A stretch of DNA of 49,089 nt from a virus, in the IMG/VR virus record IMGVR_UViG_3300019373_000002, one strand, 5' to 3'. The position numbers and the translations under genes were made by a program. Each line of letters starts with the position of its first letter. The first letter of the stretch is position 1. Under the pieces are notes generated by a model, which was given only the letters and a program-made list of their open reading frames with translations, was not told the origin of the DNA and did not search any database. Below are positions 162-49,089 of this stretch, in pieces.

Positions 162-1619
162 TCACGCATAAAAATATAATGTGATTTCTTTCTTTACATT
201 GTCACACATGATTTTTTCAATCAGTGCATGACTGCTGGCTGCTTTCTGGTCCATTGGTGCGTCTGATTGCAGCAGGGAGAGGGCAGACAAGCATTTTTCT
301 TGAAAAGCGGATGGGTCAAAGGCGGGCTGCGCTATGCTGTCCCGTCTGGCTTCCAGATTTTCAATGGCGGCGGTCAGCCGCACTTTGTTTTCCCGGTATT
401 CTTCCAGCGTGTCAATTTCTTCAATGTACGCTTTCTTTGCCCGTGAAAGCTGGTTTTTCAGCTTCTTCAATTCTGCGTCATAGTCAATAATGCTTTTTGG
501 CTGCGGGCTGGTCAAGTGCAGCTGGTAAATGTTTTCCGGGCTGTCATAGACGCTTTGCAGCGTTTCAAAAATCAGCTTTTCCACAATTTCCACTTTGACA
601 GACAGATTTTCACAGCTTGCGCCGTTCATGGAATTGTTACAGCGGTAGCGGGGCTTTCTGCCGCCGGGACGCTGGGACACATAGGAGAGAGACCCACCGC
701 AGTAAGGGCAGCGCATAAGCCCGGAAAGCCAGTGCGCATATTGGTTTGTTGCCCGTTCATATTTCTTGTGCTTTACCGCCCGTTCTTCCATGATTGCTTG
801 CACCTTGTCAAATGTTTCTTTTTCCACAATGGGCGGGTGTTTCCCGTCATATATGCCGTGCTGTCCATCCAGATTGACTTCAAGCTGTCCGCAGTATGTG
901 CGGTTTTTCAGCGTGTAGCATACTTGTGTATTTGTCCAGTTGTACCCTTTGCGGGTCTTGCAGCCGCTTTCATTCAGCTGCTTTGCAATCTGGAGATATG
1001 GCACACCGTCAATGACTTGCCGGAAGATGTACCGCACCCATTCTGCTTCATCATCAACAATGACAAGCTGGCGGGCGTTTCTGTCCATCCGATACCCAAA
1101 AGGGGCAAAGCCCAGATGTTCTTTGCGGTCAACAACCTTTGCCCGTATTCCACGCTTGCTGTCCTTTGACAACTTCCGCAGATATAATTCACCGCTTGCG
1201 CCGTTGATAGCGTCAATGTATAGTTGTGCGTCTTCATCTTGCACCATTGGTTCTGATACGGCAATAACAGAAATACCGTGCTGGCGTATCATTTGTTTAT
1301 ATGTTAAAAATTCAACCATATTCCGGGAAAAACGGAAGCTGTCCCAGATAAGCAGTGCTTTTATGTCCGGCAGCCGCCCAGTGGTTATATCCTCAATCAT
1401 TTGCAGGAAGCCGGGACGCTTTGCGACAGTGCCGCCGCTTATTCCATCATCACTGTATGTCTTGACAATCTTATATTTGTTCCGCTTTGCCCAGTCAAGG
1501 TTGAATTTGTGCTGGTCCCCCACGGAGTATTCTTGATGGTCCGTGGAAGCCCTTGTGTATTCAATGGCTGGTATCAAAAAATCACCTACTTTCTGCGGTT
1601 TTCCTTTTATTTCCCGCAC
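162..1619 (-). CDS. Large serine recombinase (phage integrase)
   Basis: 485 aa. N-terminal resolvase-type motif YTRASTDHQ, central recombinase domain, and a C-terminal Cys cluster CPYCGG..RYRCNN (zinc ribbon). Confidence 0.9.
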   Translation of the reverse strand: MREIKGKPQKVGDFLIPAIEYTRASTDHQEYSVGDQHKFNLDWAKRNKYKIVKTYSDDGISGGTVAKRPGFLQMIEDITTGRLPDIKALLIWDSFRFSRNMVEFLTYKQMIRQHGISVIAVSEPMVQDEDAQLYIDAINGASGELYLRKLSKDSKRGIRAKVVDRKEHLGFAPFGYRMDRNARQLVIVDDEAEWVRYIFRQVIDGVPYLQIAKQLNESGCKTRKGYNWTNTQVCYTLKNRTYCGQLEVNLDGQHGIYDGKHPPIVEKETFDKVQAIMEERAVKHKKYERATNQYAHWLSGLMRCPYCGGSLSYVSQRPGGRKPRYRCNNSMNGASCENLSVKVEIVEKLIFETLQSVYDSPENIYQLHLTSPQPKSIIDYDAELKKLKNQLSRAKKAYIEEIDTLEEYRENKVRLTAAIENLEARRDSIAQPAFDPSAFQEKCLSALSLLQSDAPMDQKAASSHALIEKIMCDNVKKEITLYFYA

Positions 1620-37943: not shown

Positions 37944-39087
37944 TATTACATACCCAGATGTTGAATTTGTTGAAACAGACACGGAAACGGTCATTTCAAA
38001 CATGATTGCGCTTTATGAAGAACTGGTGAAGCAGTCCGGGCGTGAAAATTACCAAGTACAGCCCGGAAGCCCGGAACGCATATTTATTTCATGGATGGCG
38101 GCAGTCATAGTCCAGCAGCGTGTATTGATAAATGAAACAGCAAAAATGAATGTTCCGAGGTATGCGGCGAAGTCCGAAAATGAAGATTATCTGGACAGTC
38201 TGGCAGAGATATTCAAAGACATACAAAGGTTGCCAGCTTCCCCGGCTTCCGCAACATTCAGATTTTACATATCGGAAGCCCAGAGCGGAGCAACAATCAT
38301 TCCGGCTGGCACACGCATTTCATTTGACGGCGTGATTATGTTTGCAACAGAAGAAGAACTGACAATCCCGGCTGGCAGCACATACGGTGATGTTACGGGA
38401 ATTTGCACACAAGCCGGAACGGTGGGGAACGGGCTTGCAATAGGACAAGTCAAAGAAGTGGTTGACCTATACGACCATTACCAGAAAGCGGAAAATATAA
38501 CAGCGACAAGCGGCGGCGCAGAAAAGGAAGACAACGCCAGCTATTATGAGCGTATGCGGGAAAGCATGGAAAGTTTTTCAACGGCAGGTCCCGTCAATGG
38601 GTACATATACTGGACGAAGACAACATCCCCGGCGGTATCAGATGTTGCGGTATCAAGCCCGGACGCTTGCGAAGTAGATGTGAGGGTACTGTTAAAAGAC
38701 GGGCAGGAAGCAACGGAAACCATATTGCAGGAAATAGAAGACGCTTTGAACGCTTCTGACATACGCCCTTTGACAGATATTGTGACGGTATCAACGCCGG
38801 ATGAAGTCAATTTTTCGGTGGATGTGACATTTTACATAGCCCAGCCGAACGCAAACAGCGCAGCGGCGATTGACGCAGCGGTGCGGCAAGCGGTAGCGGA
38901 CTATATAACATGGCAGACCGCAAAAATGGGGCGTGACATAAACCCGTCATATTTAATTCAAATGATGATGGAAGCCGGGGCAAAGCGTGTTGTTGTGACC
39001 CAGCCGACTTATGCGGCAATCGGTGACATTGAGGTTGCAAAGCTGACCACAAGCACGGTGACGAATGGGGGGCTGGAAGATGTCTGA
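37936..39087 (+). CDS. Baseplate protein J-like
   Basis: 383 aa. The size and its position between the W-like and I-like genes fit. Confidence 0.7.
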   Translation: MSDITYPDVEFVETDTETVISNMIALYEELVKQSGRENYQVQPGSPERIFISWMAAVIVQQRVLINETAKMNVPRYAAKSENEDYLDSLAEIFKDIQRLPASPASATFRFYISEAQSGATIIPAGTRISFDGVIMFATEEELTIPAGSTYGDVTGICTQAGTVGNGLAIGQVKEVVDLYDHYQKAENITATSGGAEKEDNASYYERMRESMESFSTAGPVNGYIYWTKTTSPAVSDVAVSSPDACEVDVRVLLKDGQEATETILQEIEDALNASDIRPLTDIVTVSTPDEVNFSVDVTFYIAQPNANSAAAIDAAVRQAVADYITWQTAKMGRDINPSYLIQMMMEAGAKRVVVTQPTYAAIGDIEVAKLTTSTVTNGGLEDV

Positions 39088-40081
39088 AACAATTTACAAT
39101 AGTGATTTTTCAAAATATCTTCCACAATCCTTGCAGCGTGACCCCAAAATGGTTGCATTTGCAAAAGCCGCAACAGAACAAATGCTGGAAGTTTCCGGGC
39201 TTTCAGATGATGTGTTGATATATTCACGCATTGACGATTTGCCGGAAGATATAGTGGATGTGCTGGCGTATGACTTCCATGTTGACTGGTACGATTATTC
39301 ATACCCGCTTGCAGCAAAACGGGACTTGCTGAAAACCAGCGTTCGTGTGCATAAGAAGATGGGGACAAAATACGCCATAGAAAAAGCACTGTCCGCATTA
39401 TACCCGGAAAGTGAAGTGGAAGAATGGTTTGAATATGAGGGAGAGCCGGGACACTTCCAGATTGTGTGTGATGTGACAAATTCAAGGATAGTGGCAAGCC
39501 TTGCGGACATTATAAGGGCAGTGAAGCTATACAAAAGGCTTTCCGCACATTTGGACGGCGTGGCATTTCAAGCGCACATACATTGCGAGATACAGACACA
39601 CGCTGAATATTTCCGTTACCATACGCCATTGACCGGGCGATTGAAAGCCGGGACACATCCGCAGAGGAACAGACGGGGCGTGAATTACGGAAATGACATT
39701 GTGGTGGGTACGGAAGCGGCAGGATTTATTTTCAGAAATCCGGCAGCAGGAACAATCCCATATAGAAACATGGTATTTCATAGCCAGACAGCGCAGATTG
39801 ACGCTGAAACGGCGTTGAATGTGTTTGGGTATAGAAATACAGCAGCGGGGCAGATAAACGCCGGAGAAAGCCCACAGAGAAGCCATAGAGGGCAGAACAC
39901 GGCGGCAGCGGTGGAAGCGCAGGACGCAGCAGCGGCATATCACTTCACAAGCACGGCAGCAGGAACGGTCCCGGAAAGAAGCACGGTGCAGCGAACCGAG
40001 GGCGGGGCGGTAGAAAACACGATTGCGGCAACGGCGTTTTCATATTCCGTCAAGCAGTGCGGAAGCACCCGGAAATTATAG
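39080..40081 (+). CDS. Tail protein I-like with a repeat-bearing C-terminal extension
   Basis: YLPQSLQRDPKMVAFAKA..DVLAYDFHVDWYD..KRDLLKTSVRVHKKMGTKYAIEKAL is gpI-like. The C-terminus has four AGxxPxR-type repeats. The ATG overlaps the gpJ stop. Confidence 0.65.
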   Translation: MSETIYNSDFSKYLPQSLQRDPKMVAFAKAATEQMLEVSGLSDDVLIYSRIDDLPEDIVDVLAYDFHVDWYDYSYPLAAKRDLLKTSVRVHKKMGTKYAIEKALSALYPESEVEEWFEYEGEPGHFQIVCDVTNSRIVASLADIIRAVKLYKRLSAHLDGVAFQAHIHCEIQTHAEYFRYHTPLTGRLKAGTHPQRNRRGVNYGNDIVVGTEAAGFIFRNPAAGTIPYRNMVFHSQTAQIDAETALNVFGYRNTAAGQINAGESPQRSHRGQNTAAAVEAQDAAAAYHFTSTAAGTVPERSTVQRTEGGAVENTIAATAFSYSVKQCGSTRKL

Positions 40082-41438: not shown

Positions 41439-42497
41439 ATGGCGAATTTTGATGATTTAAGCATGGCGGTTGCTTCTTTTGGGGGCAACAACAAGGTCAT
41501 TTTTGACGATTTGGAAAAGCCGTCAATCATGGTCGGCGTTCCGAAGATGAAGTTTTCTGACATTATCACCGGGGGTACGCAGGATATAGCGGATGTATTC
41601 AAGGTTGATGGCGTAGAGCGTGATTTGCTTTACATTTCAAAGTACATCAACATTGTGGTGAATGACCGTGCATATTCACTGCCCATGAAAGACCCCAAAG
41701 CATATATCAACTTTGACCAGTCACTTGCGGCTTGCCGTAAAAAAGGTGCTGGCTGGGGGCTTACGCCAAACGCTTTACGGGGCGCAATCATTTTGTGGTG
41801 CAACCGCAACAACTTTTTACCAAGGGGCAACACAAACTGGGACGCAAGCTATGAAAAGGCGTATGAAAGGGGCGTAAACACATACATTGACGGAAACCAC
41901 GGCGGCGGCAGAACTGCAACTGGCAGCGGTCCCGCTACATGGTATCATGACGGCACGGTTGGCGGCATTGCCGATATGTGCGGTGATGTATGGGAATGGG
42001 TCGCTGGTATGCGCATTGTAAACGGCGAAATCCAGATTATCCCTTACGGCAACTGCATGAAGTTAGATTGCGACATGAGCGCAGATAGCACGGAATGGAA
42101 AGCGATTAAGCCGGATGGAACACTGGTTGACCCCGGAACTGCCGGAACGCTTCACTATGACTGGCAGAGCAGCAATATTGTTATCAATACGGCTACAAAT
42201 TCAACTTTCAACCAGAACAAGCCGTTTAATAGCATAGCGGCACAGTCCGGCGTGAACATTCCACAGATTTTGAAACTTCACGGAATTGTCAAAGATACCA
42301 ATGATATTTACGCCGCTACGGGACACCAGCATTATATCAATACTGACGGCGAGCGGCTTCCGTTCCGGGGGTCGAACTTCGGCGACGCTTCCAGCGGCGG
42401 TGTTGGTGCGTTGTCCTTGTACTACGCCCGTTCCGGCTCCTACAACTCCGTTGGCTTCCGCTCCGCTTATGATGAAAAACTGGCAACTGCAAACTGA
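41439..42497 (+). CDS. DGR target: receptor-binding protein with an FGE-sulfatase / C-type-lectin-fold domain and a C-terminal variable region
   Basis: 352 aa. Contains MCGDVWEWVAG (GxVWEW signature). The VR occupies codons for PFRGSNFGDASSGGVGALSLYYARSGSYNSVGFRSA, ending 29 nt before the stop. Confidence 0.85.
   Translation: MANFDDLSMAVASFGGNNKVIFDDLEKPSIMVGVPKMKFSDIITGGTQDIADVFKVDGVERDLLYISKYINIVVNDRAYSLPMKDPKAYINFDQSLAACRKKGAGWGLTPNALRGAIILWCNRNNFLPRGNTNWDASYEKAYERGVNTYIDGNHGGGRTATGSGPATWYHDGTVGGIADMCGDVWEWVAGMRIVNGEIQIIPYGNCMKLDCDMSADSTEWKAIKPDGTLVDPGTAGTLHYDWQSSNIVINTATNSTFNQNKPFNSIAAQSGVNIPQILKLHGIVKDTNDIYAATGHQHYINTDGERLPFRGSNFGDASSGGVGALSLYYARSGSYNSVGFRSAYDEKLATAN
42359..42468 (+). 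repeat. DGR variable repeat (VR)
   Basis: 110 bp aligned without gaps to 43084..43193. There are 15 mismatches, and all lie opposite TR adenines. Confidence 0.9.
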
Positions 42498-42506
42498 TAA
42501 ACTGCG

Positions 42507-42528
42507 GGGGCTTGCGACAGCAAGCCCC
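42507..42528 (+). promoter_or_regulatory. GC-rich hairpin downstream of the VR (9-bp stem, 4-nt loop)
   Basis: GGGGCTTGC-gaca-GCAAGCCCC, starting 9 nt after the target stop codon. No strong T-tract follows. Confidence 0.6.
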
Positions 42529-42569
42529 ATCCACTAAAAACAACAGAGAATATAAGCGGGGTGCGATAA

Positions 42570-43016
42570 GTGGAAACGATAGAAGAACAGTTGCCGCCGC
42601 TGGATGAAGTGCGGGACGAAGCAACGCAGGAAGACTTCAAGACGAAAAACAAAGTCTATGAATTATTGTTGTATGCCGGACCGCAGCTTGAACAATTCCC
42701 AAAGTCGCAAAGGGTGCTTGCAAACGAAATCCGGGAAACCATGCTGCAAATACTGCGGCTGGTTGTCACGCTGGAAAACAAGCACTACAAGAAAACCACG
42801 CTGGGAGAATTAGACAATGAAGTTGATGTGCTGCGGCATTTGGTGCGGCTTGCAGCTGACCCAAACTATATGGCGAACAAAAAGCCGTGCTTGCCCATGA
42901 AGAAATATGAGCAAATGTCAAAGAAAATCAATGAAATTGGCTGCATGATAGGCGGTTATTATAAGTCTTTGAATGGAAACCCGGCGAACGCCGGAAAACA
43001 GACAAAGAAGAAATAA
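42570..43016 (+). CDS. avd: DGR accessory variability determinant (Avd, four-helix-bundle protein)
   Basis: 148 aa, basic. FPKSQRVLANEIRETMLQILRLVV...LDNEVDVLRHLVRLA...INEIGCMIGGYYKSL matches the Avd pattern. GTG start. Confidence 0.8.
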   Translation: METIEEQLPPLDEVRDEATQEDFKTKNKVYELLLYAGPQLEQFPKSQRVLANEIRETMLQILRLVVTLENKHYKKTTLGELDNEVDVLRHLVRLAADPNYMANKKPCLPMKKYEQMSKKINEIGCMIGGYYKSLNGNPANAGKQTKKK

Positions 43017-43020
43017 AAGG

Positions 43021-43045
43021 CTGGGGCGTTCTGCCCCGGTTTTTT
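43021..43045 (+). terminator. Terminator-like hairpin between avd and the TR
   Basis: CTGGGGC-gttct-GCCCCGG (one G:U pair) followed by TTTTTT. Confidence 0.45.
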
Positions 43046-43083
43046 ATATACGGGAATAAGCCGTACAGTAGGGATTTAGCCGG

Positions 43084-43193
43084 TCCGTTCCGGGGGTCGA
43101 ACTTCAACAACACTTCCAACGGCGGTGTTGGTGCGTTGAACTTGAACAACGCCCGTTCCAACTCCAACAACAACATTGGCTTCCGCTCCGCTT
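43084..43193 (+). repeat. DGR template repeat (TR)
   Basis: Non-coding copy of the VR built from AAC codons (11 AAC, plus ACT and ATT; 24 adenines). Confidence 0.9.
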
Positions 43194-43454
43194 CACCCCA
43201 TTTTTGCCAGATAGACAGCGGCACAAGTGCCGTTGCCCCGTGCATTTGGGTTTAAGGGGTTTATTTCCGTTTCAAAAGGGACCACGGATGGGAACTGGCG
43301 AAAGAAGATTGAATTGCCGTGAAAACTGTTAGTAGGTTGATTGTGGACCGAAAGCCAGCAGCAATGCTGGATGTATAAGTTATGTTTGAAATGAGTAAAA
43401 CCAAAGTAGATTTGCACGGCACTTTTTATTTTATCAAGACGGGAGGGAAAAGGA
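43194..43454 (+). ncRNA. TR-RT spacer, presumed part of the DGR template RNA
   Basis: 261 nt with no credible ORF between the TR end and the RT start. In BPP-1 this region is the spacer RNA needed for priming. Confidence 0.5.
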
Positions 43455-44657
43455 TTGCAGACCATCAAAAACATTTTCCCTTTGATTTATGATTTTGAAA
43501 ATCTGCACAATGCCTATAAGAAAGCCATAAAATGCAAACGGTACAGACCGGATGTGATGGCGTACACGGACAAGCTGGAAGAAAATCTGATTGAATTACA
43601 GAATGAATTTATCTGGCTGACCTATGAAGTGGGACGCTATAACATTTTCTATGTGTACGAACCTAAAAAGCGCATGATTATGTCATTGCAATTCAAAGAC
43701 CGGGTGGCGCAACACGCAATATATGCGCAGCTGAACCCGTATTTTGAAAAACAGTTTATCTTTGACAGCTACGCTTGCAGGGTCGGCAAGGGAACGCACC
43801 GGGCAGTCAACCGCTTGTATGGATGGCTGAAACAGACGGACAGAAAGCCGCAGCGGTGGTATTATTTGAAGCTTGACATTTCAAAGTATTTTTACCGTGT
43901 TGACCATGAAATTTTAATGGGTATCTTGCAAAGGAAGATTGCTGACAAGGATTTGTTGCACATTCTTTCAGTGATTATAAATTGCGAAGACACCCATTTT
44001 GGTTTACCGCTGGGCGCAGATGTGGGCAATGTTGCCTATGATGAATTGTTGGGAGAAGTAGGGCTGCCGATTGGCAATCTTACTTCACAAATGTTCGCAA
44101 ACCTATATTTGAACGAACTTGACCAGCACTGCAAGCACCATTTGAAGCTGCGTTATTACATCCGATACATGGACGATATTATTATTTTGCACCCGGACAA
44201 AGTATTTCTTGAACGGGTAAAGCAGGATATAGCAGCGTTTCTGGATGAAAAGTTGCGGTTGCAGCTGAACAACAAAACTTGCATAAGACCAACAAGCATG
44301 GGCATTGAATTTGCCGGCTTCCGGGTATGGTCAACCCATATCAAGTTACGGAAGAAGACAGCAAAGAAACTGAAAAAGCGTTTGAAGTATATGTTTGGGG
44401 CATACGCTGCCGGGGAGATTGACCGGGCAACGCTTGACCGCAGTATTGCTTCATACAAGGGCATATTGCAGCACTTCAACAGCTACGGTCTGCGGCAAAG
44501 TCTGAATGGGCTATATGTCAAGGAAACGAAGAAAGAAAAAGCAGAAAAGAGGGCAGAAGCGGTGGAAAATGTAGAAGCGGTGGAAAATGTAGGGCAAGCC
44601 GCAGAAAGCCCGGAAAACAAGGAGGGACAGACAAAACATGGGAGTACAGACGATTGA
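43455..44657 (+). CDS. DGR-type reverse transcriptase
   Basis: 400 aa. LPIGNLTSQMFANLYLNELD (a DGR-clade signature) and YIRYMDDIIIL (YxDD). TTG start after GGGAGGG. Confidence 0.9.
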   Translation: MQTIKNIFPLIYDFENLHNAYKKAIKCKRYRPDVMAYTDKLEENLIELQNEFIWLTYEVGRYNIFYVYEPKKRMIMSLQFKDRVAQHAIYAQLNPYFEKQFIFDSYACRVGKGTHRAVNRLYGWLKQTDRKPQRWYYLKLDISKYFYRVDHEILMGILQRKIADKDLLHILSVIINCEDTHFGLPLGADVGNVAYDELLGEVGLPIGNLTSQMFANLYLNELDQHCKHHLKLRYYIRYMDDIIILHPDKVFLERVKQDIAAFLDEKLRLQLNNKTCIRPTSMGIEFAGFRVWSTHIKLRKKTAKKLKKRLKYMFGAYAAGEIDRATLDRSIASYKGILQHFNSYGLRQSLNGLYVKETKKEKAEKRAEAVENVEAVENVGQAAESPENKEGQTKHGSTDD

Positions 44658-47296: not shown

Positions 47297-47494
47297 TTAT
47301 TCTGCGGCGGGTATCAATTCATAGTCCGCAGCTTCTTTCTGGGATAATTCCCGGCTATACTCAATATACCCCCATGCTTCACGCTGGATTTCCGGGCAGA
47401 ACTGGCGGTGGTCGAAATTTACAATGTTTTCTGCGCCGTTCCGGGGATATGTGCCGATACTGACCGGGCGCATGATACTATAATACTTTTTCAT
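47297..47494 (-). CDS. Small hypothetical protein (65 aa), - strand cassette gene 3
   Basis: An AGGTGA RBS lies 4 to 6 nt upstream. No motif confidently recognised. Confidence 0.55.
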   Translation of the reverse strand: MKKYYSIMRPVSIGTYPRNGAENIVNFDHRQFCPEIQREAWGYIEYSRELSQKEAADYELIPAAE

Positions 47495-48966: not shown

Positions 48967-49089
48967 CCCGTAATAATTAAATTTGTGTTCCATAGGCTGA
49001 CAAAAGAAAATAGGCTTTCAACCTATGCTTGCATAAACTACGGGGAAGCCTACGCCCCGGAAGAAATAGCAGACCGCAGCATTGTGATA
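48967..49089. repeat. Terminal direct repeat, copy 2
   Basis: Identical to 1..123. Confidence 0.9.

Follow-up and report, generated by a model that had tools for sequence, protein, structure and literature searches.

In the diversity-generating retroelement (DGR) of Bordetella phage BPP-1, homing requires a hairpin of a class with a GRNA loop (PMC3240598), and an RNA duplex bracketing the TR, together with a tetraloop stem-loop, has been described for this system and predicted in 207 of 278 Avd-type DGRs (bioRxiv 10.1101/2023.10.23.563531). DGR reverse transcriptases (RTs) form a clade defined by an (I/V/L)GxxxSQ motif (PMC3521204). A DGR of Thermus aquaticus is prophage-borne and has the same order of target, avd, TR and RT as the locus reported here; its target, TaqVP (5VF4; PMC6328139), is a full-length homologue of ours, a single-domain protein of the FGE subtype of C-type-lectin (CLec) folds with the VR at its extreme C-terminus. 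Clostridium phage Saumur (ON453901) is our phage's closest cultured relative; it is an inducible prophage carried by Enterocloster clostridioformis, a member of the OMM12 mouse consortium (PMC10197239). Avd and RT are annotated in the Saumur record but TR and VR features are absent from it, and the OMM12 paper makes no mention of a DGR.

The window analysed here is the whole stretch of 49,089 nucleotides, and the phage genome is a circularly assembled 48,966 bp. The phage is temperate, infects gut bacteria and has a P2-like tail, and its relatives are Lachnospiraceae prophages. Positions 41439-44657 hold a complete DGR ordered target-avd-TR-RT, as a preliminary description had claimed: the VR/TR mismatches are adenine-specific, Avd scores above cutoff, the RT carries the SQ motif and the target has the TaqVP fold. 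From in silico evidence on DGR anatomy, on the families to which the parts belong, on covariation in the RNA and on VR turnover in nature, we hold with high confidence that this is a complete, currently active DGR of the BPP-1/TaqVP type in a temperate, P2-like-tailed phage with Lachnospiraceae prophage relatives. The features are collected in Table 1; the three ORFs have the coordinates and lengths first assigned to them.

Table 1 Features of the DGR and its target site, in window coordinates
Feature	Position	Strand	Basis
Target gene, 352-aa TaqVP-like variable protein, FGE-subtype C-type-lectin fold	41439..42497	+	ORF, phmmer, Foldseek
VR, encoding aa 308-343 of target	42359..42468	+	Repeat search, alignment
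Diversifiable VR codons (n = 13)	Codons 313, 315-317, 319, 326, 328, 329, 333, 335-338	+	TR adenines
GC-rich 3' end of VR/TR homology, GGCTTCCGCTCCGCTT	42453..42468 (identical in TR at 43178-43193)	+	Alignment
VR-only CTG x4 array, 7-nt period (AACTGGC AACTGCA AACTGAT AAACTG)	42480..42504	+	Genome count, family alignment
GC-rich hairpin/cruciform, 9-bp stem GGGGCTTGC/GCAAGCCCC, 4-nt loop GACA	42507..42528	+	DNA fold
avd, accessory variability determinant, 148 aa, pI 8.75	42570..43016	+	Pfam, NCBIfam, PHROG profiles
Terminator-like hairpin between avd and TR, 7-bp stem, 5-nt loop, followed by T6	43021..43045	+	Fold, z -3.3
TR-bracketing 12-bp duplex, 5' strand, CGGGAAUAAGCC	43051..43062 (pairs with 43258-43269)	+	RNAalifold
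TR, non-coding, 24 adenines	43084..43193	+	Repeat search, alignment
TR-proximal spacer RNA, ACCC 43195-43198 pairing with GGGU 43248-43251	43195..43251	+	Comparative fold
8-bp tetraloop (CAAG) stem-loop inside ACCC/GGGU	43216-43235	+	Compensatory changes
TR-bracketing duplex, 3' strand, GGUUUAUUUCCG	43258..43269	+	RNAalifold, covariation
Stem-loop directly after duplex, then conserved A-rich run GAAAGAAGA	43270..43312 (43270-43278 with 43295-43303)	+	Comparative fold
Distal spacer RNA domain, closing helix GCCGUG/CACGGC	43316..43420 (43316-43321 with 43415-43420)	+	Covariation; inner helices
DGR reverse transcriptase, 400 aa	43455..44657	+	RVT_1, phrog_1423, SQ motif
IGNLTSQ motif in RT, aa 206-212	44070-44090	+	Translation
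YMDD motif in RT, aa 238-241	44166-44177	+	Translation

A repeat search recovered VR and TR as a direct repeat of 110 nt (86% identity, copies 725 nt apart), which MAFFT aligned free of gaps. Base by base, the TR had A at 15/15 mismatches, with 0 differences at its C, G and T positions; realignment thus reproduced the repeat coordinates and all 15 positions exactly, and the non-adenine mismatches that had been named as a sign against a DGR are absent from the window's VR/TR pair. Given 24 adenines in the 110 nt of the TR, the chance of all 15 mismatches falling on A is P = 1.1e-12 (hypergeometric). All 15 lie at position 1 or 2 of codons in the target frame. The same is true of 24/24 TR adenines, which occupy 13 codons (11 AAC, 1 ACT and 1 ATT), so the target's C-terminal surface could be given up to ~1.4e14 different peptide sequences with no stop codon created. 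No additional VR-like copies of the TR were found on scanning the whole window.

The 148-aa protein between the repeats is Avd, as first proposed: it exceeds the curated cutoffs of Pfam bAvd (77.4 bits, cutoff 40) and the NCBIfam equivalog DivGenRetAVD (90.2 bits, cutoff 80) and matches phrog_3206, 'Avd protein of DGR' (E 1.5e-32). The RT begins at a TTG codon with a GGGAGGG ribosome-binding site upstream, matches Pfam RVT_1 and phrog_1423 (E 8e-137), and contains all three motifs listed for it previously (NLYLNELD at aa 216-223; IGNLTSQ and YMDD in Table 1). Could it instead be an RT of the retron, group II intron, Abi or DRT defence class, beside an unrelated duplication? RT-domain matches to such classes do occur below threshold (NCBIfam group II, 115.7 bits where the cutoff is 300; Drt3a; retron; PADLOC DRT models), but the NCBIfam group II, retron and Drt scores are all far under their curated cutoffs and the motif is IGNLTSQ, not QGxxxSP. 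The nearest solved chain by sequence is the 328-aa RT of 8ub7 (E 7e-50, 173 bits), which we take to be the Bordetella bRT; it leads other solved relatives by ~95 bits, with group II RT structures at E 8e-21 or weaker and 78 bits or less, and retron-type RTs are likewise far more distant. BPP-1 brt itself is 35% identical (E 3e-35). The SQ motif and the proximity to 8ub7 favour a DGR-type RT, an avd gene adjoins the RT locus, the VR/TR mismatches are exclusively at adenines and an Rfam search found no intron RNA, msr/msd or other family; we therefore regard a non-DGR origin as exceedingly improbable.

The target aligns over its full length with TaqVP (phmmer against PDB, 5vf4: E 3.4e-53, 34-35% identity). 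Its AlphaFold model (pLDDT 84.4, pTM 0.88) is closest in Foldseek to 5vf4 (TM 0.89), followed by PvdO, Mtd, EgtB and TvpA, with Mtd matching in the CLec core alone (TM 0.30). GDVWEW is present at aa 182-187, and the GxVWEW FGE/C-type-lectin scaffold recognized earlier is upheld by sequence and predicted structure. A Pfam search of the target gave no match of its own; PF03781 is present in some homologues. The target matches phrog_2889 (E 8e-118).

The preliminary description also made the target a receptor-binding protein of a P2/PBSX-type module. The module part stands: the upstream genes adjoining the DGR encode Baseplate_J, Tail_P2_I, GpU, tube FII and the GPD hub, four small conserved ORFs (about 60-164 aa) lie between gpI and the target, and lysis genes follow directly downstream of the DGR, a layout similar to those of BPP-1 and Saumur. 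The receptor and host-range part is still conditional; gene position and the analogy with Mtd suggest that the 352-aa target is probably a tail-associated receptor-binding protein. In a less likely but substantial alternative, the DGR is active but its target is no tail component that binds a host receptor; the protein may bind gut glycans or another surface, or act in or on the lysogen, leaving host range untuned. Homology supplies no function here because neither a function nor a ligand has been demonstrated for any TaqVP-like protein; the nearest of them, TaqVP, is monomeric with a single domain. The target has no recognisable tail-attachment or trimerisation domain, sharing the CLec core of Mtd without its beta-prism and beta-sandwich trimerisation domains, but many of its viral structural neighbours are annotated tail-collar fibre proteins with the same fold at the C-terminus. 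While phrog_2889 is annotated 'unknown function', the 'tail protein' PHROG match is weak (E 5e-7) and no long tail-fibre gene is evident from gpI to the target, the gene closes the baseplate module, after Baseplate_J, Tail_P2_I and the small ORFs and before the lysis genes, and this baseplate-target-lysis order is kept in Saumur and BalMu-1. The N-terminus (MANFDDLSMAVASFGG...) has no evident secretion signal, and the authors of a gut-DGR survey consider that TaqVP-like targets in prophages are probably receptor-binding components of tail fibres (bioRxiv 10.1101/2024.11.15.621889).

Across four independent assemblies from different samples, the RT is identical and the TR is 100% identical. Compared with the window, one copy differs at 13 of 8,710 bases, each of them a TR-A position within the VR, with 0 differences elsewhere; another differs at 18 of 6,747, with 16 at TR-A positions of the VR and 2 at the att junction. 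Among near-identical phage copies, the TR and flanks are invariant (0 differences in about 8.6 kb) against 13-16 VR differences, and VR differences between otherwise identical copies from different samples are confined to TR-adenine positions. The 90%-identity protein cluster of the target holds 9 distinct VRs in 10 members, with variation clustered in the 13 codons that contain TR adenines and a few non-adenine changes (F314S and S332P within the VR, Y344D just outside). Judged from this between-sample variation, the DGR is evidently active in nature at present. A recently inactivated or fossil DGR, its VR/TR differences relics of earlier activity and its between-sample differences a product of old lineage divergence, could account for the few non-adenine substitutions in VR variants, and the variation observed is of the between-sample kind. 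However, outside the VR the copies with 13-16 VR differences diverge at just 0 and 2 positions over 6.7-8.7 kb, which makes the VR changes far younger than any background divergence. The ORFs are all intact, with the catalytic YMDD and the SQ motif present, the TR is 100% conserved, and neither the RNA structure nor the target-site elements are disrupted, making a fossil element very unlikely.

The active DGR is a clean representative of a class that is well known and very common in gut prophages. Related prophage DGRs number in the hundreds in Lachnospiraceae and other Clostridia; the hosts are Bacillota, mainly Lachnospiraceae, with many genomes from mouse and other animal guts. Among 135 unique VR/TR pairs from related loci, 1,650/1,721 mismatches (95.9%) are at TR adenines.

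Family comparison also delineates a target site 3' of the VR. The homology ends in a GC-rich segment, GGCTTCCGCTCCGCTT, whose ...CCGCTT terminus is kept across the family and which is the positional counterpart of the BPP-1 (GC)14 element and may share its role (cf. PMC3240598). Between the VR and the hairpin, where BPP-1 has its 21-bp IMH element, sits the CTG x4 array, which occurs once in the genome (0.075 expected by chance) and is conserved wherever the stop codon falls. Over 82 unique loci, spacers contain 3.6 CTG each (shuffles 0.38, sequences after TRs 0.6), with 92% of CTG spacings at 7-8 nt. By position the array is a putative target-site element; we found no description of it in the literature searched, and it is possibly an undescribed detail of such sites. 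The hairpin beyond it folds as DNA at -12.1 kcal/mol (z -4.7) and shows compensatory stem changes across the family; its GACA loop fits GRNA, as do 79/82 loci.

The RNA around the TR is likewise conserved in structure. Folded as a single sequence, the spacer RNA did not surpass shuffles (z +0.8 and -0.3), so the evidence for its structure is comparative: the 49 predicted pairs are 95.5% paired versus 36-48% with partners slid, compensatory pairs number 30 versus 8-15 in slid controls, and 0/500 shuffles reached the observed values. RNAalifold independently predicted the 12-bp duplex (98.7% of cells paired, both-side changes at 7/12 pairs), a counterpart of the BPP-1 cPRT-Stop duplex. Directly after it comes a stem-loop and then an A-rich run, and the cPRT Stop similarly has a stem-loop with adenosines after it (bioRxiv 10.1101/2023.10.23.563531). 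The tetraloop stem-loop, with compensatory changes in 8/8 pairs, resembles an Avd-binding element (cf. the same study), and the ACCC/GGGU helix is a candidate template:primer duplex at the TR 3' edge; as it has 4 bp, mostly invariant, its 2 covarying pairs are weak support. The closing helix of the distal domain has compensatory changes in 4/6 pairs (96% of cells paired). Upstream, the terminator-like hairpin is kept in most relatives with differing stem sequences and may attenuate TR-RT transcription; a search directly upstream of the TR revealed no sigma-70-like promoter.

From the BPP-1 system, we infer cis-primed mutagenic reverse transcription for this DGR, with roles for the target-site elements. 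A transcript would reach from just 3' of avd across the TR and on through the 261-nt spacer, and the 12-bp duplex would fold to bracket the TR, with the tetraloop stem-loop and further helices as binding sites for the RT-Avd complex. The RT would then make cDNA from the TR 3' edge, misincorporating opposite the 24 template adenines, and this cDNA would replace the VR at the 3' end of the target gene. Transfer from TR to VR would be one-way because only the VR precedes the full set of target-site elements (the GC-rich end shared with the TR, the CTG x4 heptad array and the GRNA-loop hairpin).

Compared with known systems, the locus shares with BPP-1 the order of target, avd, TR, RT, two small ORFs and lysis genes, adenine-specific TR-to-VR differences, Avd, a CLec-fold target whose gene carries the VR at its 3' end, an RT of the same clade (SQ motif, 35% identity), a GC-rich hairpin of 8-9 bp that lies 3' of the VR and has a GRNA tetraloop, and an RNA duplex bracketing the TR with a tetraloop stem-loop just 3' of it. 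In contrast, the BPP-1 target is the trimeric three-domain Mtd and ours a 352-aa single-domain TaqVP-like protein, and the upstream strand of the bracketing duplex lies inside avd in BPP-1 but is intergenic here, after the terminator-like hairpin. IMH and IMH* of BPP-1 differ at 5/21 positions, whereas the sequences 3' of VR and TR here have no similarity, so the BPP-1 directionality model is not literally transferable. The hairpin here stands 38 nt past the end of VR/TR homology, across a spacer of four CTG heptads of which BPP-1 has a degenerate version only (CTG..CTG..CTTG). Our phage, with a Gram-positive anaerobe as host, has P2-like virion genes (contractile tail); those of BPP-1 are podoviral. 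The TaqVP system differs in host phylum and habitat and has 9 variable codons versus 13. Saumur is the nearest cultured phage, with an RT 75.7% identical, the same order (two baseplate genes, four small ORFs, a 355-aa target, Avd, TR, RT, two ORFs, endolysin, holin), 14/14 VR/TR mismatches at adenines, and an AACTG x4 array and hairpin as here; its DNA is only about 73% identical over about 1 kb, and it is therefore a different phage species. In human gut bacteria, TaqVP-like 'domain group 2' prophage DGRs likewise have variable proteins classed by similarity to 5VF4, in a survey that covers Bacteroides (bioRxiv 10.1101/2024.11.15.621889), whereas the present family comes from Bacillota, mainly Lachnospiraceae.

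A repeat search of the window recovered a 110-nt direct repeat with copies 86% identical, confirming to the base the pair claimed in the preliminary description. One copy, the variable repeat (VR), lies inside the 3′ end of the target coding sequence, and the other, the template repeat (TR), is intergenic, between avd and the reverse transcriptase (RT) gene. MAFFT alignment introduced no internal gaps, and base-by-base comparison reproduced all 15 of the adenine-only differences previously listed: the TR base is A at 15 of 15 mismatches and no mismatch falls elsewhere, which, given 24 adenines in the 110-nt TR, has a chance probability of 1.1e-12. The three open reading frames (ORFs) and the motifs quoted for them were likewise all present. 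Family-wide, 1,650 of 1,721 VR/TR mismatches (95.9%) in 135 unique VR/TR pairs from relatives are at TR adenines. All 24 adenines fall, when read in the target frame, at the first or second position of 13 codons (11 AAC, one ACT and one ATT), so the TR can specify 15^11 × 4 × 4 = 1.4e14 peptides and never a stop. No further TR-templated VR, nearby or remote, was found in the window using the full-length TR and 40-nt pieces of it with adenines masked.

Copies of the element in independent samples were found by exact look-up of the RT sequence, and four loci were fetched. The TR was 100% identical to that of the window in all four, and the VR occurred in three different states. One near-identical copy (L002) differed from the window at 13 positions over 8,710 nt, every one of them a TR-adenine position of the VR, with no difference outside it; a second (L003) differed at 18 positions over 6,747 nt, of which 16 were in the VR at TR-adenine positions and two at the attachment junction. 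At the protein level, the 90%-identity cluster of the target contained nine distinct VRs among its 10 members, and its variable residues (313, 315–317, 319, 326, 328, 329, 333 and 335–338) were exactly those encoded by adenine-containing codons. Background divergence of about zero together with a VR saturated with adenine-templated changes is the signature of recent mutagenic homing, and this between-sample sequence comparison indicates that unidirectional TR-to-VR diversification is ongoing. The window demonstrably carries a textbook-complete, active diversity-generating retroelement (DGR).

Three isolated non-adenine changes were also seen in the cluster, in homologues P0125, P0122 and P0123: F314S (codon 42378–42380) and S332P (42432–42434), within the VR, and Y344D (42468–42470), whose codon spans the 3′ end of the VR/TR homology. 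Possible sources are ordinary mutation, non-A errors at a low level and noise from assembly. Separately, four 90% clusters of target homologues (P0074, P0077, P0068 and P0023) draw on very few contigs and contain from hundreds up to 16,255 distinct sequences; such sizes would be the expected product of massive VR hypervariation in public data.

Positions of the DGR components and of other features discussed in the text
Feature	Position in window	Description
Terminal repeat	1–123; 48967–49089	first 123 nt identical to last 123 nt
Attachment crossover	~48967–48978 (= 1–12)	placed from divergence of L001 after 48974
Diverged host-flank copy	13–123	corresponds to 10525–10640 in L001
Serine recombinase gene	162–1619 (−)	first in the gene order
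gpI-like baseplate protein gene	39065–40081	~185-aa C-terminal extension with repeated AAG..P.R motif
Imperfect direct repeat	39715–39987	60 nt; underlies the AAG..P.R motif
Target gene	41439–42497	352 aa; contains the VR
VR	42359–42468	110 nt; aa 308–343 of the target
CTG array	42480–42504	between VR and GRNA hairpin; AACTGGC AACTGCA AACTGAT AAACTG, CTG ×4, 7-nt period
Hairpin	42507–42528	38 nt 3′ of VR; GGGGCTTGC-GACA-GCAAGCCCC, 9-bp stem, DNA fold z −4.7
avd	42570–43016	148 aa
Terminator-like hairpin	43021–43045	followed by T6; between avd and TR
TR-bracketing duplex	43051–43062 with 43258–43269	12 bp, 98.7% paired, 7 covarying pairs
TR	43084–43193	110 nt; intergenic
ACCC/GGGU helix	very 3′ edge of TR	4-bp candidate primer duplex
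Tetraloop stem-loop	43216–43235	8-bp stem, CAAG/UACG loop, 8/8 pairs covarying
Stem-loop with A-rich run	43270–43303, then A-run	conserved A-rich run; RNAalifold
Distal RNA domain		closing helix GCCGUG/CACGGC; RNAalifold
RT gene	43455–44657	400 aa
RT low-complexity tail	44540–44657	~40 aa (EAVENVEAVENV...); overlaps start of next ORF (44638)
DarA_C ORF	47297–47494 (−)	65 aa

The RT has an RVT_1 domain, matches phrog_1423 (E = 8e-137) and contains IGNLTSQ in domain 4 (aa 206–212) and YMDD at aa 238–241. In this domain, (I/V/L)GxxxSQ marks the DGR clade, and QGxxxSP is found in group II and retroviral RTs (PMC3521204). By sequence, the nearest solved structure is a 328-aa RT in nine PDB entries (8ub7 and related; E = 7e-50, 173 bits), versus 8e-21 or weaker for group II intron RTs and 1e-18 for retron-type RTs; together with the SQ motif, this upholds the earlier assignment to the DGR class. 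We take these entries to be Bordetella bRT, from the chain length of 328 aa and because the number of entries agrees with the nine bRT–Avd complexes of a cryo-EM preprint. The brt gene of Bordetella phage BPP-1, the prototype DGR, was itself matched at 35% identity (E = 3e-35; tblastn against phage genomes), all NCBIfam group II, retron and Drt models scored far under their cutoffs, and PADLOC returned only generic RT-domain matches, which were uninformative. Accessory proteins of DGRs are of the Avd or HRDC type. The protein between the repeat copies, recognized earlier by its Avd pattern, passes the cutoffs of both the NCBIfam equivalog DivGenRetAVD (90.2 bits; cutoff 80) and Pfam bAvd (77.4 bits; cutoff 40); despite these model matches, it found nothing among PDB sequences at E ≤ 1. 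The low-complexity C-terminal tail of the RT is missing from many homologues, which match over about 355–365 aa.

The target protein aligned to PDB 5VF4 over residues 5–344 (E = 3.4e-53). This entry is TaqVP, which has an FGE-subtype C-type-lectin (CLec) fold and is diversified by a DGR in a Thermus aquaticus prophage, as its variable protein (PMC6328139). An AlphaFold model of the target, built from 55 homologues (pLDDT 84.4, pTM 0.88), superimposed on TaqVP with a TM score of 0.89, as expected from the FGE/C-type-lectin fold proposed at the outset, and the next PDB matches (PvdO, Mtd, EgtB and TvpA) are all FGE-type CLec proteins; the VR aligns to the C-terminal VR region of TaqVP, and in this class of proteins the ligand-binding surface at the C terminus is formed by the VR. 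The target had no match in Pfam or NCBIfam at E ≤ 0.01, and its fold was therefore assigned from PDB sequence and structure searches. Judged by these alignments and the predicted structure, it is a TaqVP-like, FGE-subtype CLec-fold DGR variable protein. Mtd of BPP-1 is only a weak structural match (E = 3e-3, TM 0.30), through the CLec core, and the target lacks the N-terminal domains of Mtd, including the trimerizing domains, and is not a member of the Mtd family, although it may work like Mtd.

We consider it fairly likely, from gene position and analogy, that the target is a tail-borne receptor-binding protein whose variation would tune host range. Its gene closes the baseplate module, and many of the protein's BFVD neighbours are annotated as tail-collar fibre proteins, with the fold at the C terminus. 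Against this reading, the target lacks the trimerizing domains of Mtd, and we know of no ligand for any TaqVP-like protein. A survey of gut DGRs treats ‘TaqVP-like’ prophage targets as a recognized class of probable tail-fibre receptor-binding components (bioRxiv 10.1101/2024.11.15.621889). Upstream of the target gene, the repeat-bearing C-terminal extension of the gpI-like baseplate protein might act as a short fibre or connect the DGR target as an adaptor.

For BPP-1, a cryo-EM preprint on bRT–Avd describes three RNA elements: a stem-loop immediately 3′ of the TR to which Avd binds; the ‘cPRT Stop’, a duplex of TR-upstream and TR-downstream sequences with a small stem-loop and adenosines after it; and a TR:spacer primer duplex (bioRxiv 10.1101/2023.10.23.563531). 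To compare this arrangement, we aligned the region from the 3′ end of avd to the start of the RT gene from the window and 25 diverged relatives (56–93% identity) and folded the alignment with RNAalifold. Across the predicted pairs, 95.5% of cells were paired, versus 36–48% with slid partners; compensatory changes were found at 30 pairs, versus 8–15 in slid controls; and none of 500 shuffles reached the observed values. The bracketing duplex, the stem-loops and these controls indicate that the RNA keeps the BPP-1 architecture except in one respect: the TR-upstream strand of the bracketing duplex is located between genes, behind a terminator-like hairpin, whereas its BPP-1 counterpart is part of avd. 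The priming nucleotide is predicted near 43251–43257. The covariation extends this architecture (bracketing duplex, tetraloop stem-loop, and stem-loop with A-run) to Bacillota phages. Single-sequence folding of the TR–spacer RNA was no better than that of shuffles (z +0.77 and −0.32), and the structure is thus revealed solely by comparative analysis. An Rfam scan of the whole window matched no family at gathering thresholds, placing the DGR spacer RNA outside Rfam families at that level. Immediately before the TR, a promoter scan detected no sigma-70-like site, and terminator-like sites in the region were not enriched over shuffles. The terminator-like hairpin between avd and the TR is kept, with differing stems, in most relatives, and nothing resembling a promoter was detected in the stretch from the hairpin to the TR; the hairpin could be an attenuator of TR–RT transcription or part of the DGR RNA.

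On the recipient side, the initiation-of-homing site (IMH) at the VR 3′ end is described as combining a GC-only element, present in the TR as well, with a VR-specific element that resembles, yet is distinct from, the IMH* of the TR. Here, VR/TR homology closes with GGCTTCCGCTCCGCTT, which is GC-rich and not GC-only, and beyond it the VR- and TR-downstream sequences have no similarity at all; what follows the VR copy is specific to the VR and consists of four regularly spaced CTG motifs. Further downstream lies a hairpin of the cruciform class known 3′ of VRs, which has a GC-rich stem of 7–10 bp and a 4-nt GRNA loop (PMC3240598). Its stem shows compensatory changes among relatives, and 79 of 82 related loci have a loop that agrees with GRNA; the 5′-GRNA loop was shown by Guo et al. 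to be required for BPP-1 homing (PMC3240598).

The CTG ×4 pattern occurs once in the genome, with 0.075 occurrences expected by chance. Across 82 unique target sites, spacers of ~39 nt contain 3.6 CTG each, versus 0.38 ± 0.06 after shuffling and 0.6 after TRs, and 199 of 216 successive CTG spacings are 7 or 8 nt; TRs are not followed by such an array. Arrays are of AACTG and ATCTG types, with three to five (A/T)CTG motifs each, and are kept wherever the target stop codon falls, independent of reading frame; in locus L009 the stop precedes the array. They also follow the VRs of comparison loci L005–L165, L085 and L167–L170, are conserved in DGRs whose RTs are as little as about 40% identical, and are present in phages Saumur, BalMu-1, VHML, a Vibrio phage and FP_Mushu; of these, Saumur, BalMu-1, VHML and FP_Mushu are cultured. 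In FP_Mushu, a Faecalibacterium phage (L170; 2930–3023 and 4984–5077), the VR comes after the RT, within a gene whose annotated product is a Hoc-like head decoration protein, and is still followed by five YTG motifs with a 7–8-nt period. A degenerate version of the array is recognizable in BPP-1 within the experimentally defined 21-bp IMH element.

Two RNA-based accounts of how such a site is recognized were considered. If the array paired with spacer RNA, CAGTT should be found in the spacers of AACTG loci and CAGAT in those of ATCTG loci; this prediction failed (0.67/0.28 versus 0.53/0.26 per spacer) and the account was rejected. A Naorem-type model, in which an RNA primer pairs better with the IMH of the VR than with the IMH* of the TR, is not supported here, because the candidate primer strand UUGGGU has, by eye, no complementarity to the sequence downstream of the VR. 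It is conceivable, though we would rate the chances as rather low, that the array is a general and undescribed component of DGR target sites and, as the counterpart of the 21-bp IMH element, the true VR-only determinant by which the VR rather than the TR becomes the recipient. On that reading, its recognition would probably depend on a protein (RT–Avd or a host factor) and not on base-pairing with the DGR RNA. Neither Guo 2011 nor Naorem 2017 mentions the array, and a literature search for DGR and CTG, of incomplete coverage, returned none; an earlier description may exist. The strongly conserved array offers a concrete, mutable and testable handle on VR recognition and cDNA integration in DGRs.

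The identical ends of the window indicate that the assembly is circular and represents a phage genome of 48,966 bp. A prophage reading, in which the last ~107 bases would be host flank, was ruled out as these belong to the 123-nt terminal repeat. The serine recombinase gene is followed by genes for a repressor-like HTH protein, replication proteins and a methylase, and then by a gpA-type terminase, lambda-type portal, ClpP-like protease and major capsid protein E. Next come the tail genes (tail tube FII, tape measure, LysM–GPD hub, GpU, Baseplate_J and Tail_P2_I), four small ORFs, the DGR, two further small ORFs, a LysM/CW_7 endolysin, to which precomputed Pfam annotation assigns a CHAP domain, and a holin. 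Between the holin gene and the attachment site, a small cluster on the reverse strand includes an ORF matching Pfam DarA_C (defence against restriction A, C-terminal domain; E = 2.4e-24), which may be an anti-restriction gene.

L001, from another sample, is the integrated form and departs from the window into a host gene, which places the attachment crossover beside the serine recombinase gene. The flanking host gene encodes Cyclophil_like2 and Aldo_ket_red domains, and the phage sequence beside the attachment site is a diverged copy of this flank, with an identity judged by eye at roughly one-half to two-thirds; the interrupted gene may receive a phage-encoded replacement for its end.

In silico support covers the anatomy, the RT, Avd and target families, the RNA structure, the hairpin and recent adenine-templated VR turnover. 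By analogy with BPP-1, RT–Avd would reverse-transcribe the TR RNA from a cis primer, mutagenically at adenines; the cDNA would then take the place of the VR; and VR-only elements would set the TR-to-VR direction. As a DGR the element is unremarkable: gut microbiomes are rich in prophage DGRs whose targets are TaqVP-like, and public data contain hundreds of members of this family alone. Related RTs were found in >588 viral contigs and >539 species-representative genomes, chiefly of Lachnospiraceae and other Clostridia and many from mouse or other animal guts, and 2,623 target homologues were recovered. The main additions are the evidence of natural activity, the covariation in the RNA and, as a lead that can be tested, the periodic CTG element of the target site. 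As a natural example the element is unusually clean, with a complete circular genome and with integrated and excised copies in several samples that differ only at adenine-templated VR positions, which documents recent activity without experiment. Its closest relative in culture is phage Saumur, an inducible Enterocloster clostridioformis prophage from the OMM12 mouse consortium, which shares the gene order and has an RT 76% identical to that described here, making the family experimentally tractable.
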